Of a stretch of DNA of 64,000 bases, positions 20,674 to 61,945 are shown piece after piece. Made by a program: the position numbers and the translations under genes. The DNA comes from Escherichia phage Baret. The DNA is taken from the sequence record OR896834.1; one strand, given 5' to 3'. Under the pieces are notes generated by a model that was given only the letters and a program-made list of their open reading frames with translations, was not told the origin of the DNA and did no database searches. Position 1 is the first letter of the stretch. Each line of letters begins with the position of its first letter.

Positions 20674-20702
20674 ATTATAACTCATTCGAGGGCGGATGTC
20701 AA
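20674..20702 (-). promoter_or_regulatory. sigma70 promoter (TTGACA-17-TATAAT) for nrdD
   Basis: Minus strand ttgacatccgccctcgaatgagttataat. Confidence 0.65.
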
Positions 20703-20753
20703 CAATATTTTACTATAAAGTTCTGTAACATGATCTGAGTCAAAAAATTTTAT

Positions 20754-20782
20754 TTGCCAATCTCTATTAAAAATTGTATAAT
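20754..20782 (+). promoter_or_regulatory. sigma70 promoter (TTGCCA-17-TATAAT)
   Basis: ttgccaatctctattaaaaattgtataat. Confidence 0.6.
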
Positions 20783-20894
20783 CACGCACTCGTACACGCG
20801 ATATAAAATGATTATCTAGTATCACACATCTCACGTTAAAAGCAAGCAAATTTTTTATTTAAATGCAATATCATAGGCTTATTTAAAATTGTAG

Positions 20895-20923
20895 TTGCTT
20901 TTTACTGTATATATTGGTATAAT
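20895..20923 (+). promoter_or_regulatory. sigma70 promoter (TTGCTT-17-TATAAT) for phoH-like gene
   Basis: ttgctttttactgtatatattggtataat. Confidence 0.65.
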
Positions 20924-20996
20924 ATATTTGTAAGTTGATAAACAAGATCTTTTTGTTGATCCTCTGTTAGCGAAGTACACTATAGGAGTGTTATTT

Positions 20997-21749
20997 ATGG
21001 GAAAAGCACGTCAAAAAAGAGAGAACCGCAATGGTTCAAGAAAGCGTGGCAACAAATATGAGAATAACGTAATTCAGGCTGATTTTTCTAATGATTACGC
21101 TAACCCAGTTGCTAAATCCCTAGTAGGTAAAAACCGCGAGCAAAAATCATATATCAATATGATCAAGAACAACACAGTGACTGTGGGTATCGGTGAGCCA
21201 GGTACTGGTAAAACCTTTATTCCGTCCGTTCTTGCAGCTCAGGAACTCGTAGACATTCACTCAGATATTGAGCAAGTGATTCTCGTACGTCCTAATGAAC
21301 CTCTAGGTAAGTCTCTTGGTATGCTTCCTGGTGATCTGGCGGAAAAGCTAGAGCCTTGGTTAGAGCCAATAGCTGATGGTATGAAATGGGCCATCGGCGA
21401 TCATGCCTATAAGGGATATGTCGAACGTCAGAAAATTAAATTTTTGGCTGTCGAACATGCTCGTGGCAGAACTTTCAACAACTCCTATGTAATTGTCGAT
21501 GAAGCTCAGAATATTTCCGTTGAGGCAATGATTTGTCTCCTAACTCGTGTAGGGCAAGACTGCCGTTTAATTATCTGTGGAGATATAGCTCAGAAAGACA
21601 TTAAAGGTGACTCAGGTCTAGCACTCCTTATGGAAGTCTATGAGAAATATGAAAATGCCCCATTCTCAATGATCGAATTGATTGATAACGTTCGTTCTGT
21701 TGAGTCTAAAGCATTCTATGATATTTTTAAAGATATGGGAAAGGTGTAA
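20997..21749 (+). CDS. phoH: PhoH-like ATPase
   Basis: Walker A GEPGTGKTF, Walker B VIVDEAQN; TAGGAG RBS 8 nt before ATG at 20997. Confidence 0.8.
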   Translation: MGKARQKRENRNGSRKRGNKYENNVIQADFSNDYANPVAKSLVGKNREQKSYINMIKNNTVTVGIGEPGTGKTFIPSVLAAQELVDIHSDIEQVILVRPNEPLGKSLGMLPGDLAEKLEPWLEPIADGMKWAIGDHAYKGYVERQKIKFLAVEHARGRTFNNSYVIVDEAQNISVEAMICLLTRVGQDCRLIICGDIAQKDIKGDSGLALLMEVYEKYENAPFSMIELIDNVRSVESKAFYDIFKDMGKV

Positions 21750-21750
21750 T

Positions 21751-21993: not shown

Positions 21994-21999
21994 TATACA

Positions 22000-22030
22000 G
22001 GGCCTGGGTATGAAAATACTCGGGCCTTTT
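22000..22030 (+). terminator. terminator-like hairpin
   Basis: GGGCC...GGGCC imperfect hairpin followed by TTTTC. Confidence 0.35.
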
Positions 22031-22047
22031 CTATCAGAAAATTTTAT

Positions 22048-22076
22048 TTGCCTAATGACAGATAATAAAGTAGAAT
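22048..22076 (+). promoter_or_regulatory. sigma70 promoter (TTGCCT-17-TAGAAT) for nrdA
   Basis: ttgcctaatgacagataataaagtagaat. Confidence 0.55.
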
Positions 22077-22114
22077 ATTCCTTAAATCCTGATAACTATA
22101 AAAAGGAAAGCCAA

Positions 22115-24478: not shown

Positions 24479-24491
24479 TTTGAAATTTTAC

Positions 24492-24520
24492 TTGCTAATC
24501 GCTACCAGATTTGCTATAAT
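24492..24520 (+). promoter_or_regulatory. sigma70 promoter (TTGCTA-17-TATAAT) for nrdB
   Basis: ttgctaatcgctaccagatttgctataat. Confidence 0.65.
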
Positions 24521-24551
24521 ATTCCTGAAATAGTGAGAAAGAGGAAAATCA

Positions 24552-27071: not shown

Positions 27072-27098
27072 ATAGCCCTTCGGGGCTATTATATTTAA
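27072..27098 (+). terminator. Rho-independent terminator
   Basis: ATAGCCC-ttcg-GGGCTAT hairpin followed by TATATTT. Confidence 0.7.
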
Positions 27099-27105
27099 AT
27101 TTCAT

Positions 27106-27134
27106 TTGCTTACTGAGTGAAATTTAGATATAAT
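27106..27134 (+). promoter_or_regulatory. sigma70 promoter (TTGCTT-17-TATAAT)
   Basis: ttgcttactgagtgaaatttagatataat. Confidence 0.65.
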
Positions 27135-27158
27135 ATATTTTATAAATCGGAGACAACT

Positions 27159-28158: not shown

Positions 28159-28179
28159 TAAATAAATTAAAAAATTTTC

Positions 28180-28208
28180 TTGCTTAAAGCCCTCTAATTT
28201 AGTATAAT
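28180..28208 (+). promoter_or_regulatory. sigma70 promoter (TTGCTT-17-TATAAT)
   Basis: ttgcttaaagccctctaatttagtataat. Confidence 0.65.
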
Positions 28209-28235
28209 ATTCGTATTGAAAGTGAGGAGGGCTTT

Positions 28236-28514
28236 ATGAGAATTTATAACTCAAATTCATTAGGATTTAAACCGTTGAGAAAACGTGCACAATCACCTCG
28301 TCAAATAAGAAAGGCTAATATTGGTGAGCCAGAAACACGTCTTCCACCTCCTCCGGAACAACGTTTAGTTTATCTGGATGAAGAATTAGCTGAACGCGAA
28401 AGAAAAGCTCAAGAAGAGATTGAGCGTAAGAAAATGTGTACTGCTCCAGCATATAATAAAGGAGCGTATCAATATGTTTCCGATGCAGAACAAGCCAAGA
28501 TGGTTGGTAGATAA
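28236..28514 (+). CDS. hypothetical protein (92 aa)
   Basis: Track ORF, GAGGAGG RBS. Confidence 0.5.
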   Translation: MRIYNSNSLGFKPLRKRAQSPRQIRKANIGEPETRLPPPPEQRLVYLDEELAERERKAQEEIERKKMCTAPAYNKGAYQYVSDAEQAKMVGR

Positions 28515-28531
28515 TTTTTAAAAAATTCATT

Positions 28532-28560
28532 TGCTAAACGCTTCAAATTCTCGTATAATA
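28532..28560 (+). promoter_or_regulatory. sigma70 promoter (TTGCTA-17-TATAAT)
   Basis: aaaaaattcatttgctaaacgcttcaaattctcgtataat. Confidence 0.7.
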
Positions 28561-28597
28561 TACTTCATAAATTGATAAACAAAAAGGAAAATAAATA

Positions 28598-29698: not shown

Positions 29699-30400
29699 AT
29701 GAAAGTAAAACCATTTGGTATGCTAGATATTGAATCTCTAGGAACTCCAGGAGATTGTGGTACTACTCATATCGTAATGCCTTCTTTCGCTTTTGTGGCT
29801 ATGCATGGGGTTGATAAAGACCCTGATCTAGTATTTGTTACTTTGGATGTGCAGGATCAGCTTAATTCTGGTGCCAAAGTTACAGCATCTACTCTAGCAT
29901 TCTGGATGGATCAAGCTAAAAATAGCCCCTCTGCTATCCACATTATGGAAGCTATGAAGGAACGTAATACAAAACTGATTGCCTTCCAAAATGGTAAACA
30001 TCATTGCACTAATAAATTAGGCTCAAACTATGCTGCCTTCTCTATGGCTCAAAATATTATGGAGTTGGCTCTAGGCGAAAATGCTTTGTATTATGGCAAT
30101 GGCCCAGAGTTTGATATGACTATCTACTCTGCAAACACGTTCCATGCTGGAACCAATGAAGAGGTAGTTCCATGGAAATTCTGGAATTTGGGTAATGTTC
30201 GATCTCTTCGTAATCTCTGGATGCAAGCTGGATACAGTTATAAGGCTCTAGAGACCGAAGGTATTAGCTGGGCAATAGCTAAAATGGAGAAGATGGACAC
30301 CATTCGTTATGGGATCTATCCGGTTAAGCACGACCCAGCATTCGATGCCCTAGTTGAGAGTTATTGTGTTGCAGCTATGATCGAAAAAATGAAAATTTGA
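29699..30400 (+). CDS. DEDDh-type 3'-5' exonuclease (DnaQ/RNase T-like)
   Basis: Exo I FGMLDIESLG; Exo III H-x4-D in YPVKHDPAFDAL. Confidence 0.55.
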   Translation: MKVKPFGMLDIESLGTPGDCGTTHIVMPSFAFVAMHGVDKDPDLVFVTLDVQDQLNSGAKVTASTLAFWMDQAKNSPSAIHIMEAMKERNTKLIAFQNGKHHCTNKLGSNYAAFSMAQNIMELALGENALYYGNGPEFDMTIYSANTFHAGTNEEVVPWKFWNLGNVRSLRNLWMQAGYSYKALETEGISWAIAKMEKMDTIRYGIYPVKHDPAFDALVESYCVAAMIEKMKI

Positions 30401-30401
30401 T

Positions 30402-30430
30402 TTGCTTCCGGCTCCAAAATTCTGTATAAT
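30402..30430 (+). promoter_or_regulatory. sigma70 promoter (TTGCTT-17-TATAAT)
   Basis: ttgcttccggctccaaaattctgtataat, within the 3' end of the upstream CDS. Confidence 0.65.
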
Positions 30431-30470
30431 ATATTCATAAATTTGAGAAAACAATAAAAGGAAAACAAAT

Positions 30471-31345: not shown

Positions 31346-31728
31346 TAATTTAAAAGCTAGTAAATCGGTAGACGAAAGCCCAAGCATCTTACCTCGCAGC
31401 AGCGGTTGAAATACGAGGTTAAATAAGACCGCTGACCATACTATAAAGTATAATCTATTGGAGATTATGTTTATTACACCAGCCTTTTAAGCTGACACGT
31501 AAGAACAAAGCGTCGTTGATATTACCGACACAACTTCAAAGATCAACATTTAAGTATGAAAGCTGAAAAGTTTAAAGAACTCAAACTTCTAAACTTCTAA
31601 AGCTAAAAGATGCAAAGTATTCGTTGATGATTCAAACCCTAGATCAAAGGTACATGGCTCATAAGATATGGCCTGTGGCGCCTCTAGGCTGTTTATCGGT
31701 TTACTAGTTTCACAATTTAAAAATGTAT

Positions 31729-31757
31729 TTGCTAATCCACTAAATTATATGTATAAT
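31729..31757 (+). promoter_or_regulatory. sigma70 promoter (TTGCTA-17-TATAAT)
   Basis: ttgctaatccactaaattatatgtataat. Confidence 0.65.
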
Positions 31758-31787
31758 ATATTTTTAAATTGATGAAACGAGGCTATT

Positions 31788-32110: not shown

Positions 32111-32560
32111 ATGAAGGCAGCTTTGCTTTTAGTAGCTGCCCTTACCTTCAGCTTTAGTAGTCAGGCATCGCACGATGCAAAAGAAATAGATTGCATTGCT
32201 AAAAATATCTATTTCGAAAGTCGTGGTGAGGGCATAAAGGGAATGACGGCGATTGCACATGTTACTAAAAACCGTGTAAACTCCGGTAAATTCCCAGATT
32301 CCTACTGTAAAGTAGTATATCAGTCTAACCAGTTCTCTTGGGTATCTAAGAGACCAAAAGTTGATAAAACTGATGAGGCTTGGCAAACCGCCAAGAATTT
32401 AGCTAGAGTGATATACTACGTTGATTTACCACAAGATCCTACACATGGAGCACTATACTTCCATAGTGGTAAAGATAAACCTTACTGGACAAAGAAGTTT
32501 AAGAAAACAACTAAGATTAAGGGACATACGTTTTATAAACCTGTTGTCACTAAAACTTAA
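32111..32560 (+). CDS. secreted cell-wall hydrolase, SleB/CwlJ (Hydrolase_2) family
   Basis: Signal peptide MKAALLLVAALTFSFSSQA; core IYFESRGEG...AIAHVTKNRV...FP...VVYQSNQFSW. Confidence 0.65.
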   Translation: MKAALLLVAALTFSFSSQASHDAKEIDCIAKNIYFESRGEGIKGMTAIAHVTKNRVNSGKFPDSYCKVVYQSNQFSWVSKRPKVDKTDEAWQTAKNLARVIYYVDLPQDPTHGALYFHSGKDKPYWTKKFKKTTKIKGHTFYKPVVTKT

Positions 32561-32568
32561 AAATTTAC

Positions 32569-32597
32569 TTGCTTAAATACTTAAATTTCCGTATAAT
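32569..32597 (+). promoter_or_regulatory. sigma70 promoter (TTGCTT-17-TATAAT)
   Basis: ttgcttaaatacttaaatttccgtataat. Confidence 0.65.
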
Positions 32598-32628
32598 ACT
32601 TCCATAAATTAATGAGAGGAAGCGAAAT

Positions 32629-32799: not shown

Positions 32800-33242
32800 T
32801 GGAAGAGAATATTTTAGATGTTTTGCGTAGAGCTTTGCAGGATTCTAAGTTTAATGGTTCTGATAAAGAAGTCGCTAAAAGCTATCAGACCATAATCGGG
32901 GATCTTCAGCGTATTAATAAAGATTTCATCACTTCTGAACAATTTGTGTCTTATCTCAAAGCTCAACTAAAAAGCATTAACCAGATGAAAGCTAAACTTC
33001 ATGGTCAAGATCTTGATAGTTATAGCTTGCAGTCCGCTCAGTATGAATACATTCTAAATAAGTGGTTGCAGGAGTATCTGCCTCCTCAGTTATCTGATAC
33101 TGAGATTCGTAAATACTTTGCAGAATTAGTTAAGCTAAACCCTGGAATTACAAAAGGTATGCTAATGAAAGCGATTAAGGAAGAATTTCCTGGGCGTTAT
33201 GATGGTGGTACTGCTGCTCAGATTGCTGGCGAATTTAATTAA
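32799..33242 (+). CDS. hypothetical protein (147 aa)
   Basis: Track ORF. Confidence 0.5.
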   Translation: MEENILDVLRRALQDSKFNGSDKEVAKSYQTIIGDLQRINKDFITSEQFVSYLKAQLKSINQMKAKLHGQDLDSYSLQSAQYEYILNKWLQEYLPPQLSDTEIRKYFAELVKLNPGITKGMLMKAIKEEFPGRYDGGTAAQIAGEFN

Positions 33243-33250
33243 AAATTTAT

Positions 33251-33279
33251 TTGCTAAATGCTTATAAATTCTGTATAAT
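33251..33279 (+). promoter_or_regulatory. sigma70 promoter (TTGCTA-17-TATAAT) driving an ORF-free RNA region
   Basis: aaaaatttatttgctaaatgcttataaattctgtataat; no ORF downstream for ~800 nt. Confidence 0.65.
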
Positions 33280-33299
33280 ATATTCATAAATTAGAGAAC

Positions 33300-34090
33300 A
33301 GCGAGCCGATTACGCTGAACTTGTCTTAATGTAAGATGCGTCAAGCACTAAGATTCGTTGAATAGAGTCGGTGGGTTAGTTGTAAAACTAGTACACAGGG
33401 GGCGGCAATCCCGGTTAGTGGCTAGAACGTGTAAAATGAGGCGTCTGAAACCTCTCCCCTAAACTCTTCTCTAATTTATAAATAGTGGGGTGTGGAAATC
33501 ACTTATGTAGTAACACTGCCGTCCTAGTATAATTGGTATTATCAAGCCGTAACTGGTGGAAGATGTAGGTTCGAATCCTACGGTCGGTAAGAACTGGATA
33601 ACTGATGCTTTTAACGTAAAAGCTTCCGAGGTTAGTTGCGCACTGCCTAAACCACGCGGTAGTTGGTTCCAGACTAACCAACCAGTCTGCTGAATAGTTT
33701 TATTACGATTTAACTATGCCCAGGCTAAAGAAGAACTTTAGAAGGTATTCTAGGGTAGTGAAGTTCTTTCTCCATATCGGAGTAGTTTTTCAAGCTATCC
33801 ACAAAGTGGGAAATGCTGACATGAGAGATGTCACTAATGGTGCACAATAGCACAGGTAATTCGCGATAACTCCTGTTGAGTAGCAGCAAAAGGTGGGAAG
33901 TCATGACCCCAAGCCTAACCGAGTCCTCAATATACCGCAGGACATAACCACTAAGTCACCCTGACTTAAACTGGAAAATAATAGACGTTACCGTATTTTG
34001 TCTTGAAATACTTAATGAGTGAGACTTATGACTCTCCCGGTATCGTCTGTATTTTTAAGAGTTTTTACGAGAGTTCTTAAAAATACTTAA
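33300..34090 (+). other. ORF-free structured region (candidate noncoding RNAs) upstream of tRNA-Arg
   Basis: No ORF of 60 aa or more; stacked hairpins (GTTGGTT/AACCAAC, AAGAACTT/AAGTTCTT, TTTTTAAGA/TCTTAAAAA); DnaA-box-like CTATCCACA. Confidence 0.3.
33518..33589 (+). pseudogene. tRNA-like element (degenerate)
   Basis: Canonical T-arm GTAGG-TTCGAAT-CCTAC and 6/7 acceptor pairing, but no convincing anticodon arm. Confidence 0.25.
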
Positions 34091-34091
34091 A

Positions 34092-35245: not shown

Positions 35246-35764
35246 ATGACTGTTGATGAACTAACAGAACATCTCTTATCTAGAGGGTTTGATACAGATA
35301 AATATCACTGCTGGCTAAGCCCAGAAGGATGGCTAACAGTCCCATTGTATGACTTCTCTGGGATGTTGAGAGGCTATCAGACTTATAATCCTTCTGCTCC
35401 AAAAGGTCATGGTAAATGCCCCTTTGAAGCTAGATATTTTACTTATTCTACTACACAGTGTGTATGGGGACTAGAAACTCTCAATGGAGACGAAAAAGTA
35501 GTATTGATTGCTGAATCTGTATTTAAGGCAGTTGCGTTACATAACGCTGGTTATCCAGCCCTGGCAATGTTGGGTTCTTCCCCCGGAAAAGCGTTGTTAA
35601 AGCAATTGAAATTACTACCTTTTAAATTGGTAGCTGTTGGGGATAATGATCCTGCTGGTGAAAAATTTGCTAGACAATTAAATGGATTTGTTTCTCCTGT
35701 AGATGTGGATGAGATGTCTACCGAAAACTTGAAAAATTTTCTTGCTATGAAGCTAAATTTCTAA
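35246..35764 (+). CDS. TOPRIM-domain protein (172 aa)
   Basis: VVLIAESVFKAV (E) ... LVAVGDNDPAGEKFA (DxD) fits TOPRIM; promoter TTGCTA embedded in its 3' end. Confidence 0.5.
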   Translation: MTVDELTEHLLSRGFDTDKYHCWLSPEGWLTVPLYDFSGMLRGYQTYNPSAPKGHGKCPFEARYFTYSTTQCVWGLETLNGDEKVVLIAESVFKAVALHNAGYPALAMLGSSPGKALLKQLKLLPFKLVAVGDNDPAGEKFARQLNGFVSPVDVDEMSTENLKNFLAMKLNF

Positions 35765-35770
35765 TATAAT
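35742..35770 (+). promoter_or_regulatory. sigma70 promoter (TTGCTA-17-TATAAT) for tRNA transcription unit
   Basis: ttgctatgaagctaaatttctaatataat. Confidence 0.6.
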
Positions 35771-35784
35771 ATATTTATAAATTC

Positions 35785-35873
35785 GGAAGAATAGCATAAC
35801 GGTATTGCAGCAGATTGCTAATCTGTCGGTTTGAAATATAGCCTTGTGGGTTCGATTCCCACTTCTTCCGCCA
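35785..35873 (+). tRNA. tRNA-Ser (anticodon GCU), type II, CCA encoded
   Basis: Acceptor GGAAGAA/TTCTTCC, anticodon arm GCAGA-TTGCTAA-TCTGT, long variable arm, T-arm GTGGG-TTCGATT-CCCAC. Confidence 0.8.
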
Positions 35874-35879
35874 AATTCT

Positions 35880-35957
35880 GGTTCTCAAGCTCATATGGTA
35901 TGAGCACCCGGCTCATAACCGGAAGGTACGTAGGTTCGAATCCTCGGGGAGCCACCA
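35880..35957 (+). tRNA. tRNA with CAU anticodon (Met/Ile2-type), CCA encoded
   Basis: Acceptor GGTTCTC/GGGAGCC, D-arm GCTC...GAGC, anticodon loop CTCATAA; T-stem has mismatches. Confidence 0.5.
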
Positions 35958-36632: not shown

Positions 36633-36662
36633 CTCCTCCAAACAGAATTTTTAAAAATGTAC

Positions 36663-36692
36663 TTGCCTTTTGCCTTAAATTTCTGATATAAT
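36663..36692 (+). promoter_or_regulatory. sigma70 promoter (TTGCCT-18-TATAAT)
   Basis: acttgccttttgccttaaatttctgatataat. Confidence 0.6.
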
Positions 36693-36722
36693 AATTATAT
36701 AAATTGATGGAGGAGTTAACGA

Positions 36723-37006: not shown

Positions 37007-37045
37007 GCACTGAGCAAGTTCTTTAAAATTTGACTTGCTCAGTGC
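37007..37045. repeat. 12-bp perfect inverted repeat enclosing the -35 of the next promoter
   Basis: GCACTGAGCAAG (37007-18) and CTTGCTCAGTGC (37034-45). Confidence 0.6.
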
Positions 37046-37063
37046 CTTAAAACTTGATATAAT
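37035..37063 (+). promoter_or_regulatory. sigma70 promoter (TTGCTC-17-TATAAT) for tRNA unit
   Basis: ttgctcagtgccttaaaacttgatataat. Confidence 0.6.
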
Positions 37064-37079
37064 AGTTATCTAATTCGGA

Positions 37080-37129
37080 AACATATTTAAAAGTGTTTAA
37101 ACTAGTATTTGAATACTTTTAAATATGTT
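37080..37129. repeat. 15-bp perfect inverted repeat (leader hairpin) abutting tRNA-Tyr 5' end
   Basis: AACATATTTAAAAGT (37080-94) and ACTTTTAAATATGTT (37115-29), 20-nt spacer containing GTTTAAAC. Confidence 0.7.
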
Positions 37130-37478: not shown

Positions 37479-37749
37479 GATGCATCCTGAAAACTTCTTT
37501 ATTTACTGCGCGGATAAGTTGCTGAAACGTAGAATTAACAAAGTCTATCATTATCGTGTTAGTCAACAGCCTTATGTATACGCTTTTGACGGTGATCACA
37601 TTTCATTAGAACAATTATCTTGTGATTACATGATATTGAAGAACTTTGACGAGACGAAGATCTCAAGCGTTCACAATCGACAGAATCCATTAACGTGGAA
37701 ATATAAGAAAAAGAAAGGCATCAAATTCTTAAAAAATGTAGTTGCTTAG
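37479..37749 (+). CDS. hypothetical protein (90 aa)
   Basis: ATG 6 nt after AAGGAG; track start adjusted. Confidence 0.45.
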
Positions 37750-37770
37750 TTTCCAAAAGTTCTGTATAAT
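37742..37770 (+). promoter_or_regulatory. sigma70 promoter (TTGCTT-17-TATAAT)
   Basis: ttgcttagtttccaaaagttctgtataat. Confidence 0.6.
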
Positions 37771-37799
37771 AAATACATAAATTGAACTGGAGAAGCAAC

Positions 37800-38018
37800 A
37801 TGACAGAACAAGAATTGAATGAACGTAAGCTAGTAATGCTTCGCTTACTAAATATTTTCTCTGGTATGGACGGTGGTGGTGATTTCTTAAGACTTAAGGT
37901 ATTTACAGAAACTGCCGAAGGTGATGCAATCTCTAGAGTTATTAGGAACATGGGAAGCCTGCTAGATGTGGCTGGAGTAGCTACTCAATACACCTTAGAT
38001 AATCCTACTGGAGAATAA
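37800..38018 (+). CDS. hypothetical protein (72 aa)
   Basis: ATG after GGAGAAG RBS. Confidence 0.45.
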   Translation: MTEQELNERKLVMLRLLNIFSGMDGGGDFLRLKVFTETAEGDAISRVIRNMGSLLDVAGVATQYTLDNPTGE

Positions 38019-39869: not shown

Positions 39870-40250
39870 AAATTTCAGTGCAGAACACGGAGCTAGCAAT
39901 TCGGAAGTGCTGACTCATGATAAGCTGCCTATGTACTTGCGAAGCGGTCGTGTCCAAGACTCGGACTCTTGCACTGAAAACAATCAAACATTCTAGCGTG
40001 GTTGATGGGGAAACCAGCTTGGCGAGGGCAGAAGCTCGTTCGATTCGAGTGAAAGAATGGTTCTCGTAAGTCCGCACAAGTGATAACAGGTTCGAGTCCT
40101 GTCTAGAATGACACTATAAAGTTTACTTATTATGTAGGTTCCGATAGACCGGCGGGTCTATTCTGGCATTTAAGAGAGGTCTCGCAAACTTCTTTGTCAG
40201 CCGTGGGGTTGGTAGCCTCCAGGTGGCCTACACAATAAGTAAATTTATTA
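39870..40250 (+). other. ORF-free structured region with tRNA-like modules
   Basis: T-arm-like hairpins CTCG-TTCGATT-CGAG and ACAGG-TTCGAGT-CCTGT; 7-nt pairing ATTCTAG (39990-96) with CTAGAAT (40103-09) spanning ~120 nt. Confidence 0.3.
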
Positions 40251-40259
40251 AAAATTCAT

Positions 40260-40288
40260 TTGCTATTCTGCTTTATTATCTGTATAAT
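40260..40288 (+). promoter_or_regulatory. sigma70 promoter (TTGCTA-17-TATAAT)
   Basis: aaaaattcatttgctattctgctttattatctgtataat. Confidence 0.65.
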
Positions 40289-40320
40289 ATATTTTATAAA
40301 GTGAAGAGAAGGAAAGCAAA

Positions 40321-40479
40321 ATGAAACACAAGATAGCTCAAGTTTTTATGGCATTATGGTGTATACCAATAGCTATAACAGCATTTAATCTAGATACTTT
40401 TACTATAGAAGAAAAATGTATCGGATTAGTTAGCGGTTTTAGTATGCTGGGCTTATCTTTGCTGTGGTTAAAGAAATAA
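40321..40479 (+). CDS. small hydrophobic membrane protein (52 aa), not in ORF track
   Basis: ATG after GAGAAGGAAAG RBS; two predicted TM segments. Confidence 0.45.
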   Translation: MKHKIAQVFMALWCIPIAITAFNLDTFTIEEKCIGLVSGFSMLGLSLLWLKK

Positions 40480-40913: not shown

Positions 40914-40931
40914 ATTTCAAGAAAAACGCAG

Positions 40932-40960
40932 TTGCTTGATGCTTAATTTCTTGTTATAAT
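40932..40960 (+). promoter_or_regulatory. sigma70 promoter (TTGCTT-17-TATAAT) for RNA-only unit
   Basis: ttgcttgatgcttaatttcttgttataat. Confidence 0.65.
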
Positions 40961-40972
40961 ATTTATATAAAT

Positions 40973-40994
40973 TGATGAGGATTTCTCCTCATCA
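40973..40994. repeat. perfect 9-bp hairpin at transcript 5' end
   Basis: TGATGAGGA-tttc-TCCTCATCA; the 5' arm is the conserved leader box that elsewhere provides the RBS. Confidence 0.6.
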
Positions 40995-41198
40995 TAGTTC
41001 ACTAAGGTATTAGCTCGACCTAGGACTGGCTGCCAAAAAGCACGATCCCTACGATTCGGGAGGAGTTCTAGATTAGTCCACTAGATTCAGCGGCAACTGA
41101 ATAGTGTATTGGGTTTGCGAGATGACGCGGTTCCTTCCGCTCGAAGCGAAGGTGCTGTAGTTACGCCGAGCTAATAGCCTTAGTAAACTAAAGAATTT

Positions 41199-41823: not shown

Positions 41824-41918
41824 GGTAGGTCAATCCAACGGCTGGCGCTGGACTCCGACTTGAAATCGGTTGATCGTAGTGATACGGTGTAAGGGTTCGA
41901 TCCCCTTACCTACCTCCA
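41824..41918 (+). tRNA. tRNA-Ser (anticodon UGA), type II, CCA encoded
   Basis: Acceptor GGTAGGT/ACCTACC, anticodon loop CTTGAAA, long variable arm, T-arm AAGGG-TTCGATC-CCCTT. Confidence 0.7.
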
Positions 41919-43342: not shown

Positions 43343-43357
43343 AATTTAAAAATTCAT

Positions 43358-43386
43358 TTGCCTTCTCTCTTATTTATTGTTATAAT
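43358..43386 (+). promoter_or_regulatory. sigma70 promoter (TTGCCT-17-TATAAT)
   Basis: aaaaattcatttgccttctctcttatttattgttataat. Confidence 0.65.
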
Positions 43387-43416
43387 ATTCATATAAATTA
43401 ATGAGAGGGAAACCAA

Positions 43417-43707
43417 ATGAAACGTTATCTTTCTATTGTATTCCAAACTGGTGGTCAAAGATATACCTATGAATTTCCATCTTCTTGGAAAATCAAAGAA
43501 GGTGATCAAGTAGTAGTGTTAACACCGCGTGAAGGGTATAAAGTAGTAATGGTTAAACAAGTATTCCCAAAAGATCATGAACCAGCTAAAGGCATTCGCT
43601 ATAAGATGATTCATGGTGTGGTCCGTCAAGTACCACGAACTGAGGTAGAAGTAGATAAGACTGGAGAAACTAAATTCCATTATACTTCTTACTTAGATAG
43701 TGTGTGA
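43417..43707 (+). CDS. hypothetical protein (96 aa)
   Basis: Track ORF, GAGAGGG RBS. Confidence 0.5.
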   Translation: MKRYLSIVFQTGGQRYTYEFPSSWKIKEGDQVVVLTPREGYKVVMVKQVFPKDHEPAKGIRYKMIHGVVRQVPRTEVEVDKTGETKFHYTSYLDSV

Positions 43708-45479: not shown

Positions 45480-45496
45480 ATTCTGAAATAATTCAT

Positions 45497-45525
45497 TTGC
45501 TAAACCTCTCTTTTCTTGCTATAAT
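45497..45525 (+). promoter_or_regulatory. sigma70 promoter (TTGCTA-17-TATAAT)
   Basis: attcatttgctaaacctctcttttcttgctataat. Confidence 0.65.
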
Positions 45526-45555
45526 ATATTTATAAATTGATGAGAGAGGTTTGAA

Positions 45556-45837
45556 ATGAAAAATCGCCTAGACTGTGCCATTCATGTTCTTGAACATGAT
45601 GTTGTGGGAACCTGTATGTCTTACCACGAAGCAGGTCCTTTAATTAAAGAACGTGTGGCAGATGTGTGTGGATTGAAGATTACTGCTGAGGAAGCTGATG
45701 ATCTTTTAGGTCAAGCACTGGAAAAAACCGAAATGTTCCTATGCGATTCTTGTTCTTGGTGGTGTGAAGCTCACGAACGTTCTTTCAACGATTATGATGT
45801 ATGTCGTGATTGTAGTGGGGAGGATGAAGATGAATAA
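45556..45837 (+). CDS. hypothetical Cys-rich acidic protein (93 aa)
   Basis: Track ORF; CDSCSWWC...CRDCSG. Confidence 0.5.
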   Translation: MKNRLDCAIHVLEHDVVGTCMSYHEAGPLIKERVADVCGLKITAEEADDLLGQALEKTEMFLCDSCSWWCEAHERSFNDYDVCRDCSGEDEDE

Positions 45838-47607: not shown

Positions 47608-47621
47608 TAATAAAATTTTAA

Positions 47622-47650
47622 TTGCTTAGATGCCCAAACTTTTGTATAAT
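47622..47650 (+). promoter_or_regulatory. sigma70 promoter (TTGCTT-17-TATAAT)
   Basis: ttgcttagatgcccaaacttttgtataat. Confidence 0.65.
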
Positions 47651-47681
47651 ATGTTTATAGATTGAGGCAAGAGGATTAAAT

Positions 47682-50470: not shown

Positions 50471-50536
50471 TTTTATCTAAAATTCTTCTTGACAACGACA
50501 TAATTTTATGCTCCAAGTGTAACATTTAAAAACCCA

Positions 50537-50565
50537 TTGAAATTTTCCTCCAAAATTAGTATAAT
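50537..50565 (+). promoter_or_regulatory. sigma70 promoter (TTGAAA-17-TATAAT) for lysis cassette
   Basis: ttgaaattttcctccaaaattagtataat. Confidence 0.6.
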
Positions 50566-50590
50566 GGTACTGGTTAGAGGAGGTTACAAA

Positions 50591-51247
50591 TTGGAAAAGT
50601 TCTTACAATTATTAACAGTACTGCTCCAAGAAGCGAAAGACCCAGCATCGCTTCTTAAACGTCTGCTAACTATCTTAGTTGCTGTCATTATTTTCTTATT
50701 TGTTAGTAATACTAGTGAAGTAATGTCATTCTTAAAGACTTTTTCCACGTCTGCAGTTTTACAGGATTTACAAACCCAGAGGATAGATAACTTCCCTAAT
50801 GTGGCGAGGGAAAAGAGCATGGTTCTCTTCTCTCAGACGGGTGCAGATGCTGTTTTTGTAGTCAAGTATAAACCAGATGCTATCAATGATTATTCCAATA
50901 TTATTGCATGGGAAAGTAATGCGCAATTAGATAGGGCTGACTTGGCCGATAAAGCGGTAAATAAAACGTCTGAATTATACAGACGTCATTTAGAGGGCTT
51001 TAACTACGCATCGGATTTAAGTGTAAGAGTAAATAAATATATGGGGTTAAATATACCTGCGTTTAAAAACGTTACTTTTAATTACATATACACTTGTCCA
51101 TACTTCAATCTAAAAAATATCTATGCTGGGTACATTGGTATTGCTTGGAAAGATAATCCGGTAGATACAGCTGATTCTGAACAGTTCAAGGAATATTTAG
51201 CAAAGCTCTGTTCCCCACAACAGAGATCTTTAGGTAGGTCAATATGA
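50591..51247 (+). CDS. holin-like membrane protein (218 aa, TTG start)
   Basis: TTG 8 nt after AGAGGAGG and downstream of promoter (track ATG at 50537 lies in the -35); single TM LLTILVAVIIFLFV; immediately upstream of endolysin. Confidence 0.5.
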   Translation: MEKFLQLLTVLLQEAKDPASLLKRLLTILVAVIIFLFVSNTSEVMSFLKTFSTSAVLQDLQTQRIDNFPNVAREKSMVLFSQTGADAVFVVKYKPDAINDYSNIIAWESNAQLDRADLADKAVNKTSELYRRHLEGFNYASDLSVRVNKYMGLNIPAFKNVTFNYIYTCPYFNLKNIYAGYIGIAWKDNPVDTADSEQFKEYLAKLCSPQQRSLGRSI

Positions 51248-52152: not shown

Positions 52153-52165
52153 TATAAAAAAGTAG

Positions 52166-52194
52166 TTGACTTTTAGCCCTAGTTATTATATAAT
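52166..52194 (+). promoter_or_regulatory. sigma70 promoter (TTGACT-17-TATAAT)
   Basis: ttgacttttagccctagttattatataat. Confidence 0.65.
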
Positions 52195-52227
52195 ATATAC
52201 ATAAATTAGTTAAGAGAGGTATATATT

Positions 52228-52948: not shown

Positions 52949-52980
52949 AAGCCTGATCTTAGCGGATCAGGCTTTTATTT
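52949..52980 (+). terminator. Rho-independent terminator
   Basis: AGCCTGATC-ttagcg-GATCAGGCT followed by TTTTATTTT. Confidence 0.8.
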
Positions 52981-52983
52981 TAC

Positions 52984-53012
52984 TTGCTTTTTGCTAAAAA
53001 TTTTGGTATAAT
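52984..53012 (+). promoter_or_regulatory. sigma70 promoter (TTGCTT-17-TATAAT)
   Basis: ttgctttttgctaaaaattttggtataat. Confidence 0.65.
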
Positions 53013-53069
53013 ACTTATATAAATTGATGAGAAGGCTATCTACGCACTACAAGAAATAGGGGTATTCCA

Positions 53070-55440: not shown

Positions 55441-55555
55441 GTATATAGCTGAGGTTATTATTAAACGAATCATACAGGCGATAGCAATACTTATAATCAT
55501 TTGTATTGCTGTTGGCACAGGATTAGGCATTTTAATTAAAAGTTTTATTTGCTAA
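55433..55555 (+). CDS. possible 40-aa hydrophobic micro-protein
   Basis: ATG overlapping upstream stop; strongly hydrophobic; 3' end overlaps next promoter -35. Confidence 0.25.
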   Translation: MSKYIAEVIIKRIIQAIAILIIICIAVGTGLGILIKSFIC

Positions 55556-55577
55556 AATGCTTAAGTTTCTGTATAAT
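55549..55577 (+). promoter_or_regulatory. sigma70 promoter (TTGCTA-17-TATAAT)
   Basis: ttatttgctaaaatgcttaagtttctgtataat. Confidence 0.65.
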
Positions 55578-55607
55578 TACTGTATAAATTGATGAGAAGG
55601 AATCAAA

Positions 55608-56039: not shown

Positions 56040-56056
56040 GTAATTAAAAAATTCAG

Positions 56057-56085
56057 TTGCTTTAAGCCTTAAAATTCTGTATAAT
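56057..56085 (+). promoter_or_regulatory. sigma70 promoter (TTGCTT-17-TATAAT)
   Basis: ttgctttaagccttaaaattctgtataat. Confidence 0.65.
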
Positions 56086-56117
56086 AAGTTCATAAATTAA
56101 TGAGAGAGGAAATTCTA

Positions 56118-58486: not shown

Positions 58487-58505
58487 TGTTTTCAAGGAAT
58501 ATAAT

Positions 58506-58703: not shown

Positions 58704-58704
58704 T

Positions 58705-59151
58705 ATGAGAGAAAAAGTAAATGAATTATTAATCGAGGAAGCTAACAACTTTCCAATAAATAGGTTCATCAAATCGGATGGATCTATTAATAGAACTAAA
58801 ATTAAACAGCTACATCCCGACTTCCAACAAGAAGCACTAAACCTTATATTTATCAAGAAAGCTGTTGCAGCTCATGGAGCTTTCTTCGGGTATGAGCGTG
58901 TAAATTATAAGACAATGCAACAGCAAGTTGAGATCTATTGTCCAGATCACGATGGTTATTACTGGCAGACTGCTAGATCTCATTTAGAAGGGCATGGTTG
59001 CCGACTGTGTGCACACAAGGTTGTGCAGCGTGTCACGGATTATGGAACTTATACCGTACCAGCATGTTACCATAAATTTGTAATTGACGATAATCATATA
59101 GTTTGGTATAATAAGTTTTCAAAGCTAAGAATGGAGATAAGTAGTGAGTAG
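58705..59151 (+). CDS. hypothetical protein with Cys/His-rich domain; paralogue of N-terminus of 61160-61888
   Basis: LHPDFQQEALNLIFI...YERVNYKT...QTARSHLEGHGC-x2-CA shared with downstream gene. Confidence 0.5.
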   Translation: MREKVNELLIEEANNFPINRFIKSDGSINRTKIKQLHPDFQQEALNLIFIKKAVAAHGAFFGYERVNYKTMQQQVEIYCPDHDGYYWQTARSHLEGHGCRLCAHKVVQRVTDYGTYTVPACYHKFVIDDNHIVWYNKFSKLRMEISSE

Positions 59152-59434
59152 CTATATTGTATGGTCAAACCCACTAGCAGCACTTAGTAACAAACTATTT
59201 AAAACAACGTGGGGATATAATGAAATAGACTTAGGTAGTCGCCCAATACCAAACAAACACCCCTTAGTTCCAGAGCTGTATAGGGTAGGGATAAATGGCA
59301 CGGAGTATTTGGTTGATAAATTTGACAGAAAACGTCTACTAGAGGGTATCTACGATAATTCTACATCGATAAATGAATTAGTAGAACATGCCCAAATATA
59401 TGATAAAAGCTGGATGTTAATATGGAGATCATAG
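59144..59434 (+). CDS. hypothetical protein (96 aa)
   Basis: Track ORF. Confidence 0.45.
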   Translation: MSSYIVWSNPLAALSNKLFKTTWGYNEIDLGSRPIPNKHPLVPELYRVGINGTEYLVDKFDRKRLLEGIYDNSTSINELVEHAQIYDKSWMLIWRS

Positions 59435-59646
59435 TAATTATTTTAGCAGTTATGTTATTTATTGTAACATTTGCTATTATGCGCAGAGCTAGAGAACTAG
59501 CGGAAGATATAACAAAATTACGTGGTGAGTTGGCTGCTCTTAAATTACAGCGAGAGGCTTTAAAGTTGTTTGTGGTTCAGGGTAGCGTAGAGCATACAGC
59601 AGAAGACTTCATCATATATCTCAAACGTTACATGGGAGTTAAATAA
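59422..59646 (+). CDS. hypothetical membrane protein (74 aa)
   Basis: Track ORF. Confidence 0.4.
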   Translation: MEIIVIILAVMLFIVTFAIMRRARELAEDITKLRGELAALKLQREALKLFVVQGSVEHTAEDFIIYLKRYMGVK

Positions 59647-59831
59647 TGGAAACTCTTTTTCTTTTAATGCTCGTAGGTTCCTTGCTAGTTATATTAGCAC
59701 TTCTACTGATCTGCAATATTCTTAATAATAAGAATCTAGAGCTAAAGTGTGAAAACCAAATCCTTAATCGTGAACTTAAACAATATAACATAGCAGCGCA
59801 CAAGCTACTAGACAAATTGGAGAATAAGTAA
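59646..59831 (+). CDS. hypothetical membrane protein (61 aa)
   Basis: Track ORF. Confidence 0.4.
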   Translation: METLFLLMLVGSLLVILALLLICNILNNKNLELKCENQILNRELKQYNIAAHKLLDKLENK

Positions 59832-60442
59832 TGACTTTATATGCACAACAACCTGTTCAAGTAGTACCAGACCATGAATTAAATACATGGGATTATGATT
59901 TTAAAGACTTAACTGCCACTGTACAGTTCAAATCTATGAAGCTAACCTTTGCGCACACTAATATTAAAGCATGTAAAGATTTTGAAGGTAGGCTCAACAA
60001 CGCTCGTAAGATTTTTGGCAAGGCTCGCATCCCAGCTGATAATCTAATTAATACACTAATCGATGCTGGTTATAAACTTGTAAAGACTGAGGTTAACCGT
60101 CCTAGTACTCCTGTGACTATTCGAGATCCGTGGCAGTCAGGGCCAATTACAATGTGGAACAGCCCTAAAATAACGTCGGATTTGCACAATGTTCCATGCG
60201 GTGGCGTTATAGAAAATAATTCCTCATATCGAGTTGGTGAAGATTATGGACCTTCTGCACAATTGAAACATACTCAAGAAGCTTTTGAATCTGATATGAA
60301 AAGCGTAGCGCCTGTGGATACTGAAGGTTTTAGAAGTCCCATCTATGTTACTCACTTTAATAATCTTAGGCCTGGGGGTATAAATGATACTATCCTTGAA
60401 GCGTTGGGAGCTGCTATTAATGAAGATAAGAGGGGTAATTAA
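59831..60442 (+). CDS. hypothetical protein (203 aa)
   Basis: Track ORF. Confidence 0.5.
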   Translation: MTLYAQQPVQVVPDHELNTWDYDFKDLTATVQFKSMKLTFAHTNIKACKDFEGRLNNARKIFGKARIPADNLINTLIDAGYKLVKTEVNRPSTPVTIRDPWQSGPITMWNSPKITSDLHNVPCGGVIENNSSYRVGEDYGPSAQLKHTQEAFESDMKSVAPVDTEGFRSPIYVTHFNNLRPGGINDTILEALGAAINEDKRGN

Positions 60443-61167
60443 TGAGTATAAAAAAGAATTTAGCAGAGATTATTAAGTTAGCTAGAGCTTGTAATGGAAA
60501 ATGTGTTTCTCAGCTTAATGAACTAGAGGCACATGCAGTAGCGTTTTGTGCAGAGTTTTACCCTGCATATATTAACGCTAGTGGACAGCCGAAATATAAT
60601 AAGGATGCCGAAGAAGTTACGTTAGCTCCTTCATATATTAGCTTGCGTCGTTTAATTCAAACCGTTGATCCTACTATTAAAGGATTCTCAGCAGATTCAT
60701 TCCACGTCTTTGCAGATAAAGAACTCCCGTATTTTAAAGAAGGAAATGCAAAGTCATGTTTAGAATGTTATCCTAATATACTGATGATTCCTCAAAAGCA
60801 ATGTAAATACGATCATCTTCCTAGACTTACAAAGAAAGTAGCACCACCTTATTCTTCTCTATCTGAATTAAAGCTAGGAATTGTATCTACACTTGCGCAG
60901 ATTCATCTAAGTATAGTTGACGACTCAACAACATCTAACCCTATTCTAGACGCTGCTCACTTTGAAATTTTACGTGATCCTGAACAAGCTAGAAAAGTTG
61001 CTAAGTCTGTTAAGTTTGATATATCAACAATTCTTGACACTAAACAAGAAACTAGACCTAGAGGAAGTGTAGATTATTCTGCGCTAAATTCCGAGTCATC
61101 TTACTTAGCAACATTCCTTTTCATGGCGTCAAAAGGGGTTATTCTAAAGGTTAATAAAGATGGATGA
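60442..61167 (+). CDS. hypothetical protein (241 aa)
   Basis: Track ORF. Confidence 0.5.
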   Translation: MSIKKNLAEIIKLARACNGKCVSQLNELEAHAVAFCAEFYPAYINASGQPKYNKDAEEVTLAPSYISLRRLIQTVDPTIKGFSADSFHVFADKELPYFKEGNAKSCLECYPNILMIPQKQCKYDHLPRLTKKVAPPYSSLSELKLGIVSTLAQIHLSIVDDSTTSNPILDAAHFEILRDPEQARKVAKSVKFDISTILDTKQETRPRGSVDYSALNSESSYLATFLFMASKGVILKVNKDG

Positions 61168-61888
61168 TTTACGTGCTGAAATTAATAAAAAGTTACGAGA
61201 GGAAGCCCGGAGGTTTCCTCTTAAAAACTTTTTGAAGTCAAATGGCTCTACTAATATAACGAAGATTAGGCAACTTCACCCTGACTTCCAACAAGAGGCC
61301 TTAAACCTTATCTTTATTAGGAAAGCTTTAAAAGTCCAGAAAGAAGAGTATGGGTATGAAAGAGTTAATTATAAGACAGCCAATCAGTTAGTAGAGATAT
61401 GGTGCTATAAACATAAAGGATACTTTATGCAAACTGCTAGATCTCACCTAGATGGGCACGGTTGTTTACAATGTGCTAGGGAAAGCAACCTAAATACACC
61501 TATCGAGAAACCGGAGGTAGAAGAAGATGTTCAGTCCCCCACATATCTCTATATCTTCTCTAATAAAGATCAGTCTAGGAAGAAATTAAAGACAAAGATT
61601 GGGGTTTCTAGAGAGCCACATCAAAGGTTTAAGAATCTAGAGTATGATAAATTGCGTGTGCCGGGTTTTGAAGATATGGAAGTATTTGGTATCTACCAGT
61701 ATAAGAAAGGATCGAAAGAACTCGCTTACAAAATAGAACACCAAGCACATAAATTTTTCGAGAATAAATTTGCTAACCATTATAAATTCGATGGAGCAAA
61801 AGAGATATTCAACATTAAAGCTGTAGAGGCAGAAGAATATCTATTAAGTCAAGGTTGCATAAAAATTTACCCAACTCCAAACTCATGA
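61160..61888 (+). CDS. two-domain protein: Cys/His-rich N-domain (paralogue of 58705) + T5orf172/GIY-YIG-like C-domain; possible homing-endonuclease-like
   Basis: N-domain shared with 58705-59151; C-domain TYLYIFSNKDQSRKKLKTKIGVSREPHQRFKNL resembles the T5orf172 signature also seen at 38294. Confidence 0.5.
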   Translation: MDDLRAEINKKLREEARRFPLKNFLKSNGSTNITKIRQLHPDFQQEALNLIFIRKALKVQKEEYGYERVNYKTANQLVEIWCYKHKGYFMQTARSHLDGHGCLQCARESNLNTPIEKPEVEEDVQSPTYLYIFSNKDQSRKKLKTKIGVSREPHQRFKNLEYDKLRVPGFEDMEVFGIYQYKKGSKELAYKIEHQAHKFFENKFANHYKFDGAKEIFNIKAVEAEEYLLSQGCIKIYPTPNS

Positions 61889-61915
61889 CAAAAATTTAAA
61901 AGTAACGAAATCTGC

Positions 61916-61945
61916 TTGACATTCGTGAGAATAATGTGTTATAAT
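61916..61945 (+). promoter_or_regulatory. consensus sigma70 promoter (TTGACA-18-TATAAT) firing into the repeat region
   Basis: ttgacattcgtgagaataatgtgttataat; no ORF with RBS downstream. Confidence 0.6.

Follow-up and report, generated by a model that had tools for sequence, protein, structure and literature searches.

Organization of the early region and its promoter family

We analyzed a stretch of 64,000 nucleotides from Escherichia phage Baret (OR896834.1), referred to in its entirety as the window, with emphasis on a family of repeated promoters between positions 20674 and 61945 and on the conserved segment, here called the box, that follows their -10 hexamers. Between 36 and 46 kb the window shares 99.4% identity with Salmonella phage EH4 and Escherichia phage vB_Eco_mar004NP2 and about 95% with T5-group phages and, judged by its sequence, it is the early region of a T5-like siphovirus (Demerecviridae, Tequintavirus). 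As far as about 20.7 kb the genes lie on the - strand; the + strand takes over at 20.75 kb and carries the genes to about 62 kb. The 22 tRNA genes at 34-44 kb form a cluster. Divergent promoters within 20652-20804 mark the strand switch (20702 on the - strand versus 20754 and 20895 on the + strand), and the GC skew changes sign at about 20 kb and again at about 62 kb. Promoter copies are named by the coordinate of their -35 element (e.g. 43358).

A sequence-only reading of this DNA had described a promoter family of the form TTGCT(A/T)-17-TATAAT with A-rich upstream tracts. This description was borne out, as TTGCTW-N17-TATAAT with at most one mismatch matched 27 sites in the window versus 2.0 expected, and a position weight matrix (PWM) restricted to -46 to -7 scored 32 sites in the window, whereas shuffled sequence gave none. 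Hand curation that also allowed 18-bp spacers yielded 35 strong copies, consisting of 27 on the + strand within 20674-61945, the divergent copy 20702 on the - strand and seven further - strand copies at 3.8-18.7 kb; tallies out of 36 include in addition a weaker - strand site at 8439. The count of about 33 given previously for 20674-61945 is slightly high, since lowering the threshold added no further weak copies in the window. The copies are not near-identical either, with a mean pairwise identity of 56% over 61 nt and a range of 31-84%.

The information profile of the 35 copies revealed conservation at -45 to -37 (AAAA-w-TT-y-A), -35 to -31 (TTGCT), parts of the spacer, -12 to -6 (TATAATA) and +2 to +7 (TAAATT), as well as a purine-rich stretch at +9 to +13. 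The UP-like upstream block carries A at -45 to -42 in 28-32 of the 35 copies, followed by TT(T/C)A. At positions -35 to -32, T, T, G and C were present in 35, 32, 32 and 30 copies, respectively, while TATAAT is essentially invariant. The discriminator has A at -6 in 32 of the 35 copies and is T-rich from -5 to -1, with many copies reading ATATTT or ATTTAT and thus being of the ATATT type. In T5, whose promoters have been mapped by primer extension, the ATATT discriminator is typical of early promoters (Klimuk 2020, PMC7472727).

The conserved segment downstream of the -10 hexamer had been ascribed to most copies. This holds for its first seven nucleotides only: the heptamer ATAAATT was found with at most one mismatch at 23 of the 36 promoters (0.6-1.0 bit per position at +2 to +7), whereas the 16-mer ATAAATTGATGAGAGG, even with up to three mismatches, was present at 11 of 36 (9 of 27 on the + strand).

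Relation to the early promoters of T5

The same elements are annotated as promoters in the GenBank record of T5 st0, namely P13a, P13b, P-H207, P-D/E33, P-N25, P-N26, P-K28a/b and several 'putative promoters'. The close likeness of 11750-11778 to the classical PN25 promoter of T5, which had been pointed out before, reflects orthology: copy 11778 on the - strand (11728-11788; ATAAATTTGAGAGAGGAG, ATG at +26) aligned to 'promoter P-N 25', which precedes gene D3, and matches it without a difference between about -15 and the end of the start codon. By alignment, copy 10737 on the same strand (10687-10747; ATAGTTTGAAAG, ATG at +52) corresponds to P-N26, and P13a, P13b, P-H207, P-D/E33 as well as the 'putative promoters' were recovered at matching positions in T5.

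The T5 early promoters studied in the Bujard and Ksenzenko laboratories (P-N25, P-N26, P25/P26/P28, P-H207, P-D/E20/33 and P13a/b) have the same consensus, genome positions and downstream genes, and nucleotides +1 to +16 of T5 N25 (ATAAATTTGAGAGAGG) are the box, allowing for the TTGA/TGATGA variation within the family. There is no essential difference between the two sets, Baret being another Tequintavirus species with changes at the level of the spacers. The pQE and pDS expression vectors use N25 of T5, which also serves as a standard model in studies of promoter escape. Gentz and Bujard are said to have described homology in the transcribed region of T5 promoters as early as 1985. The early promoter family and its conserved transcribed segment are already known for T5, and the observation as first stated re-describes one of the best-studied promoter families and adds little. 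What is added here to the knowledge of T5 is the distinction of a promoter half and a Shine-Dalgarno (SD) half in the box, together with the demonstration that this architecture reaches the Mccorquodalevirinae.

Probable two-part structure of the box

By orthology to N25, +1 is the A of ATAAATT and the box is therefore transcribed from its first base; the start site coincides with that base rather than lying downstream of the box, an arrangement that would have made it a DNA-only element. The non-template oligonucleotide spanning -12/+2 of N25 is TATAATAGATTCAT (Klimuk 2020, PMC7472727). At the other copies transcription would start at the corresponding position.

We compared 86 promoters from five genomes (this window, T5, Yersinia phage phiR2-01, a Klebsiella phage and Pectobacterium phage DU_PP_V). 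Relatives were probed with dNMP kinase, GrcA being unsuitable as it is common to T4-like phages. Promoters with the start of an open reading frame (ORF) within 40 nt were classified as coupled to a coding sequence (CDS), resulting in 65 coupled and 21 uncoupled copies. An SD match of at least 4 nt at +9 to +20 was found in 78% of the coupled (51/65) versus 38% of the uncoupled promoters (n=21; Fisher p=0.001), while the heptamer was present in 75% versus 52% (p=0.06). The start codon was located at +25/+26 in 31 of the 65 coupled copies. The SD information peak, at -13 to -9 from the start codon, was the same in promoter-proximal genes and in 62 operon-internal genes, the latter possessing an ordinary SD without the extended box. 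In phiR2-01, where the small ORF behind P13a is lost, the SD half is replaced and ATAAAGTGA is retained. The earlier assignment of the GAGG end as ribosome binding site (RBS) before CDSs is thus well supported, with its canonical distance, its peak at -13 to -9 and its tracking of CDS presence. On the other hand, the notion of a single box with two alternative uses gives way to a composite of an initial transcribed sequence and an SD, of which the SD half tracks the CDS and the heptamer does so less.

The copies are very probably host-sigma70-dependent early promoters of a T5-like phage, each with a leader that has an SD built in, and the box would consist of two abutting elements. The cassette would be read in the order UP-like A-rich block (-45 to -37), -35 TTGCT, 17-bp spacer, -10 TATAAT and A/T-rich discriminator, with transcription starting at the A of ATAAATT and a purine-rich initial transcribed sequence leading into the SD at about +12 to +17 and the start codon at +25/+26. 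ATAAATT(G/A/T) would be the promoter part: it would hold the start site together with the early transcribed sequence, on which escape depends in N25. GAGAGG would serve as RBS of a leader of about 25 nt, short enough for a ribosome to cover it whole. At promoters without a downstream CDS the first half would stay and the second half decay or, in the case of P13b, become locked in a small leader hairpin. According to two reports, swapping +3 to +20 of the initial transcribed sequence of N25 cuts productive output about 10-fold and the promoter is escape-limited (PMC12464699; PMC5961368, citing Kammerer 1986).

Several points weigh against this interpretation. The start sites in Baret are extrapolated from T5 N25, and the conservation of TGATGAG, which separates the heptamer from GAGG, exceeds what an SD alone would call for. 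Because 40932 and 52984 keep a near-perfect box without a start codon at +25, the 3' half is not purely an RBS, and the heptamer itself is rarer at promoters without a CDS (52% versus 75%).

The PWM without downstream information recovered leaders reading ATAAATTnATGAGAGG-N7-9-ATG in T5, phiR2-01, the Klebsiella phage and DU_PP_V, the last of which belongs to a different subfamily and has a dNMP kinase that is only 37% identical. The constancy of the cassette across Demerecviridae subfamilies, including ATAAATT and the +25/+26 phasing, despite a protein identity of about 37%, provides evidence from natural variation for selection on the initial transcribed sequence. Conservation of this kind could also be expected if +1 to +16 were an operator-like DNA or RNA site for a phage regulator, involved in early shut-off or acting together with the RNA polymerase (RNAP)-binding protein gpT5.026. 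Even at promoters that no CDS follows, the heptamer is conserved across subfamilies; the holin promoter, presumably required for later expression, is devoid of the box; and it has been reported that gpT5.026 weakens RNAP contacts with -5/+2 and that early promoters share a specific discriminator (Klimuk 2020, PMC7472727). However, no regulator binding this segment is known or was found in this analysis, and the escape effect of the initial transcribed sequence already accounts for the conservation. In addition, N25, which carries the segment, is reportedly strong and constitutive in uninfected E. coli, as in the pQE/pDS vectors. We consider a regulator site quite improbable and retain the view of the box as a promoter half joined to an SD half.

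Variation among individual copies

Most of the + strand copies upstream of the tRNA cluster precede a CDS at varying distance. These include 20895 (20885-20945; leader GTAAGTTGA, ATG at +68), 22048 in front of nrdA (22038-22098; -10 TAGAAT, ATG at +34), 24492 (24482-24542; ATG at +28), 27106 (27096-27156; ATAAATC, ATG at +18), 28531 at the position of T5 P-H207 (28521-28581; ATAAATTGA, ATG at +32), 30402 (30392-30452; ATAAATTTGAG, ATG at +35), 31729 (31719-31779; three mismatches in the box, ATG at +25) and 32569 at the position of T5 P-D/E33 (32559-32619; one mismatch, ATG at +26), while 20754 (20744-20804) has neither an ATAAATT box nor an adjacent CDS. Within the cluster, 36663 (36653-36714) combines an 18-bp spacer with ATAAATTGATGGAGGAG and an ATG at +25. 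Further downstream on this strand are 47622 (47612-47672; ATAGATTGAGG, ATG at +26), 52166 (52156-52216; -35 TTGACT, ATAAATTAG, ATG at +28), 55549 (55539-55599; one mismatch, ATG at +25), 56057 (56047-56107; two mismatches, ATG at +27) and 59084 (59074-59134), which has TTGACG as -35, no box and a GTG at +27.

On the - strand, the divergent copy 20702 (20652-20712; -35 TTGACA, ATG at +24) serves an nrdD-like gene, and it is followed by 18727 (18677-18737; ATAAATTTGATAGGAG, ATG at +23), 15321 (15271-15331; ATTGAATTGAGAGAC, no adjacent CDS), 9521 (9471-9531; two mismatches, ATG at +26), 8346 (8296-8356; ATAAATTGATAAGGAAG, ATG at +25) and 3813 (3762-3823; 18-bp spacer, GTAAGTTAGAG, TTG at +56) in addition to the N25 and N26 orthologs. 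A second, rarer class of leaders carries ATTGAAAG(T)... in place of ATAAATTGA; it was observed at 28217-28236 of the window and in distant genera (L005 at 6691 and 10226; L004 at 5114 and 9106).

Predicted masking of ribosome binding sites in readthrough RNA

For a subset of the promoters we propose, at about even chance, an additional function that would add to the explanation given above rather than replace it. In these copies the upstream, untranscribed half of the promoter (about -42 to -21) is complementary to its own SD-to-AUG region (+9 to +30) and may mask the RBS in RNA that reads through from upstream. Such readthrough RNA would fold into a hairpin of 23-31 pairs that hides the RBS, while RNA started at the promoter itself would be devoid of the 5' arm and translatable, so that translation would be tied to the gene's own promoter.

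The candidates identified in silico were 28180, 37742, 40260, 43358 and 45497, with the holin-gene promoter 50537 being borderline. In 28180 (28170-28230), which has the alternative leader ATTGAAAGTGAGGAGG, the spacer AAAGCCCTC and the promoter's own SD region GAGGGCTTT are reverse complements. The same relation exists in 45497 (45487-45547; one mismatch in the box, ATG at +25), where in the predicted readthrough hairpin at 45492-45561 (-24 kcal/mol) the spacer AACCTCTCT would pair with AGAGAGGTT and TTCATTT with AAATGAA. For 43358 (43348-43408; one mismatch, ATG at +25), located directly after tRNA-Thr, the predicted hairpin spans 43353-43422 (-23 to -25 kcal/mol) and pairs promoter positions -42 to -21 with the SD through the AUG. 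Masking hairpins are also predicted at about 37734-37806 for 37742 (37732-37792; ATG at +24) and at about 40255-40326 for 40260 (40250-40310; ATG at +26), the equivalent of T5 P13a. At 50537 (50527-50587; -35 TTGAAA, no early box) the spacer sequence TTCCTCC faces the SD GGAGG in a predicted hairpin at about 50512-50595. In the predicted folds the AUG pairs with a CAU that immediately precedes the -35 hexamer, and the SD with the spacer. The region 50527-50600 (+ strand) sets the holin gene apart from its neighbors: the gene begins with TTG, and its dedicated promoter combines a weak -35 with a G-rich discriminator and lacks an early box; this promoter is possibly of a different temporal class.

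Duplexes between a promoter's own -50 to -2 and +5 to +34 regions reached -20 to -24 kcal/mol in about 12 promoters and ranked among the lowest 0-2.4% of mismatched combinations, and over all 86 promoters own pairs were stronger than cross pairs (p=0.015). Adding 70 nt of native upstream sequence lowered the predicted accessibility of the RBS from 0.44-0.58 to 0.03-0.20 (37742, 40260, 43358 and 45497), with z values of -2.6 to -5.0 relative to shuffled arms, and about 100% of the RBS pairing involved sequence upstream of +1. Minimum free energy (MFE) hairpins of -17 to -25 kcal/mol compared with -0.1 to -5.5 kcal/mol for leaders started at +1. With the same geometry applied as a control, the effect was present in none of 62 operon-internal genes versus 4 of 19 promoter-proximal genes (Fisher p=0.002), the mean accessibility ratios being 0.99 and 0.62, respectively. 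Readthrough into 43358 appears close to unavoidable, as tRNA-Thr, which lacks a separate promoter, ends only 11 nt short of the hairpin arm and no terminator intervenes.

Comparison of orthologs revealed modest covariation. The orthologs of 45497 (alignment G3) were 94.4% paired, a value reached by 1 of 500 shuffles, and the covariation score was reached by 5 of 500; two pairs displayed double changes, and there was a G.U intermediate. In the orthologs of 43358 (G2) one C-G pair changed to U-A. Alignment A3 contained one compensatory pair and 96.6% paired cells, and independent events were few across the alignments. In L063, which is on the same contig as L016, the spacer of the 45497 ortholog is rewritten to a perfect complement of AATTGATGAGAG with the -35/17/-10 geometry kept. 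The change in L063 from ...CTCTTTTCTTGC to ...CTCTCATCAATT extends the complementarity between promoter and leader to a near-perfect 26-nt palindrome. The holin SD is predicted to be masked by a spacer containing CCUCC in three genera whose arm sequences differ.

The sense RNA was more stable than the antisense RNA in all six cases, each of which has 1-5 G.U pairs. This stability and the conserved G.U pairs favor a structure at the RNA level on the sense strand and disfavor a DNA cruciform, which we had considered instead. Antisense promoters were rejected as the cause of the symmetry between promoter and leader, since a good sigma70 match was found only at 40260 (40291-40319, - strand) and not at 43358 or 45497. 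We likewise rejected the idea, suggested by the sequence logo, that the upstream AAATTTAT and the downstream ATAAATTT form an inverted repeat, since their variants do not co-vary (e.g. TTCAT upstream occurs with ATAAATT downstream).

The proposal also faces several objections. Its evidence is purely computational, and since both arms are also under promoter and RBS constraint, conservation alone proves little for the helix. The covariation derives from few events among close relatives, and disruptions in single sequences also occur. Moreover, of about 24 CDS-coupled promoters only 4-6 displayed the effect, no such complementarity exists in the Klebsiella ortholog of 45497, and T5 P13a was not significant. 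Part of the complementarity is family-wide (TTCATTTGC versus GCAAATGAA) and could simply result from two consensus sequences that are independent of each other.

The principle itself has a precedent in the T4 genes e, soc, 49 and I-TevI (Uzan & Miller 2010, PMC3014915), whose RBS is sequestered in long early transcripts while a late promoter lies inside the 5' arm of the helix. As in T4, the SD and AUG are predicted to pair with sequence upstream of an internal promoter's start, so that only transcripts from that promoter would have a free RBS, and in both phages a lysis gene is among the cases (holin here, lysozyme in T4). Unlike in T4, the 5' arm here would be the UP/-35/spacer region of a sigma70 promoter itself. 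The pay-off may not be temporal, because these promoters are of the same early class as those upstream, except perhaps that of the holin gene. In the literature searched we did not find a description of promoter-embedded RBS masking for T5-type phages or for promoters of this kind, though one may exist. We tentatively suggest, placing the chance a little short of even, that a subset of Demerecviridae sigma70 promoters doubles as anti-RBS elements, with RNA from upstream (tRNA precursors and early readthrough into the holin gene) being silent and promoter-born RNA being translated. If so, the small ORFs among the tRNA genes and the holin gene would be spared translation from readthrough RNA, and a regulatory principle of T4 would extend to another phage family.

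Promoters of RNA-only units

The box had also been proposed to act as a hairpin arm in units that encode only RNA. This was confirmed for P13b (40932; 40922-40982; three mismatches in the box, no CDS), where the box does pair with a downstream complement at 40973-40994. This leader hairpin reads TGATGAGGA-TTTC-TCCTCATCA and has the SD-like half of the box as its 5' arm, GATGAGGA pairing with TCCTCATC, in front of RNA2H and tRNA-Ala. It is kept in all 24 Tequintavirus-type orthologs with a loop that is mostly GNRA, and the one varying pair of the stem is AU in 15, GU in 5, AC in 1 and GC in 1 of 22 aligned sequences. The stem is the same in T5 except for one A.C mismatch, and the loop there is inverted (GAAA). 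In the Epseptimavirus-type orthologs (phiR2-01 L003, L006 and L012), on the other hand, an insert of about 110 nt between GATG and CATC replaces the hairpin. The hairpin was rejected as an intrinsic terminator, as the stem on the + strand is followed by TAGTTCAC and no U-tract, with a weak match on the - strand only. The simplest reading is that it keeps an orphan SD-like sequence of a non-coding transcript paired or caps the 5' end.

The second example put forward, a 15-bp perfect inverted repeat at 37080-37129 in the leader of the unit for tRNA-Tyr/Glu/Phe (promoter 37035; 37025-37085), is real, but the box has no part in it, since the box of this copy is degenerate (ATCTAATTCGG) and the repeat lies downstream of it. 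The arms comprise 22 nt each (91% match) around the 15-bp perfect core, the 3' arm overlaps the first 3 nt of tRNA-Tyr, and the outer stem persists in a second, longer form of the leader in phiR2-01-type phages. The MFE fold of the tRNA-Tyr unit does pair a degenerate remnant of the box, CUAAUUCGG, with the 5' strand of the tRNA.

P13b is thus the only promoter without an adjacent CDS at which a consensus box forms a hairpin arm, and 33251, 35742, 37035, 52984 and 61916 do not use it in this way. At 33251 (33241-33301) ATAAATT is kept without the SD half and a hairpin begins only after the box, while nothing comparable was found at 52984 (52974-53034; one mismatch, start codon only at +52 with a separate SD) or 61916 (61906-61967; -35 TTGACA, 18-bp spacer, ATAGATTAAAAAC, no adjacent CDS); no helix containing the box was seen at any of these three. 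At 35742 (35732-35792) ATAAATTC is followed at once by tRNA-Ser, which starts at +9 (35785). The predicted primary transcript consists of AUAAAUUC and tRNA-Ser, 8 nt after the start (35777-35785), an arrangement conserved in phiR2-01 (L003 at about 5700), and in DU_PP_V (L005 at about 4630) the heptamer precedes a similar GGAAGG-type leader. A general rule by which one and the same leader box serves protein units as RBS and RNA-only units as hairpin arm would have the hairpin of P13b in 24 of 24 Tequintavirus-type orthologs and the tRNA-Tyr fold in its favor. With the box used as an arm at a single promoter, the hairpin exchanged for an insert in the Epseptimavirus-type orthologs and the repeat at 37080-37129 lying outside the box, this rule is unlikely and largely refuted, and the composite of promoter half and SD half remains the preferred explanation.

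RNA2H (41001-41184, about 185 nt, + strand), named in the T5 record, is a highly structured non-coding RNA flanked by the P13b leader and tRNA-Ala. A 17-bp stem closes the fold, whose z-score is -6.3, and 11 of its 70 predicted pairs contain a compensatory change; two phages possess a swapped 3' hairpin. A search of Rfam (E<=1) over 20-64 kb returned only tRNAs; neither the P13b leader nor RNA2H nor the 33251 unit matched a known family.

Additional features were observed in the tRNA region. The promoter 33251 drives about 800 nt (33286-34091, + strand) without a credible ORF that are unannotated in relatives and end at tRNA-Arg; the first 93 nt are 89% conserved in the Klebsiella phage, and the segment may encode further stable RNAs. 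Rfam matches to tRNA or tRNA-Sec-like models without an ARAGORN call were obtained at 35880-35954 (40.3 bits), 33518-33589 (35.5 bits) and 41824-41914 (38.3 bits) and may represent additional or degenerate tRNA genes of the cluster; the tRNA-like element at 33518-33589 lies within the stretch driven by 33251. An AT-rich hairpin at 34049-34086 (+ strand; 12 bp perfect, longer if imperfect pairs are included) is located 5 nt 5' of tRNA-Arg, and about 40 nt around it share about 93% identity even with DU_PP_V (L005 2390-2431), far above background. Long hairpins before tRNAs are not a general feature, as only tRNA-Tyr and tRNA-Arg have them.

Promoter cassettes and possible recombination

The copies resemble the promoter-early-stem-loop cassettes (PeSLs) of T4-type phages, the closest analogue with regard to the repeated cassette, in that dozens of intergenic cassettes with sigma70-like -35/-10 elements are repeated. 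PeSLs combine an AT-rich block, -35/-10, SD and start codon (PMC4122927), as the T5-type copies do, and one possibility is that the cassettes are retained chiefly because recombination between them reshuffles gene modules. The tRNA region between the promoters varies strongly among relatives, and in the 43358 ortholog of L053 unrelated sequence has taken the place of the whole promoter, the breakpoint falling within the box and leaving only ATTAATGAGAGGG..., which hints that the cassettes can act as recombination junctions. PeSLs, however, have a terminator-like stem-loop upstream and are associated with indels, while most T5-type copies have no such stem-loop just 5' of the promoter and possess conserved spacers of their own. 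In the window an inverted repeat at the -35 was present only at 37035 (37007-37045), and terminator-like sites showed no excess (10 found versus 9.8 expected from shuffling). The spacers are specific to each promoter and common to its orthologs; therefore the copies are old and individually maintained rather than recent repeats or homogenized. Recombination as the main reason for their persistence is accordingly doubtful to the point of being unlikely, and we continue to regard the copies as early promoters with a two-part transcribed box.

The inverted repeat at 37007-37045 (+ strand) consists of 13 perfect bp, GCACTGAGCAAGT and ACTTGCTCAGTGC, with an A-tract in the loop and the -35 of the tRNA-Tyr promoter in its 3' arm. 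Loops that are exactly inverted between relatives were observed twice, namely TTTC (40982-40985) versus GAAA in T5 (L001 at about 12006) and most others at the P13b hairpin, and CAGGAAATCCTG versus CAGGATTTCCTG in the long tRNA-Tyr leader of L029. Such inverted loops are the signature of template switching within palindromes.

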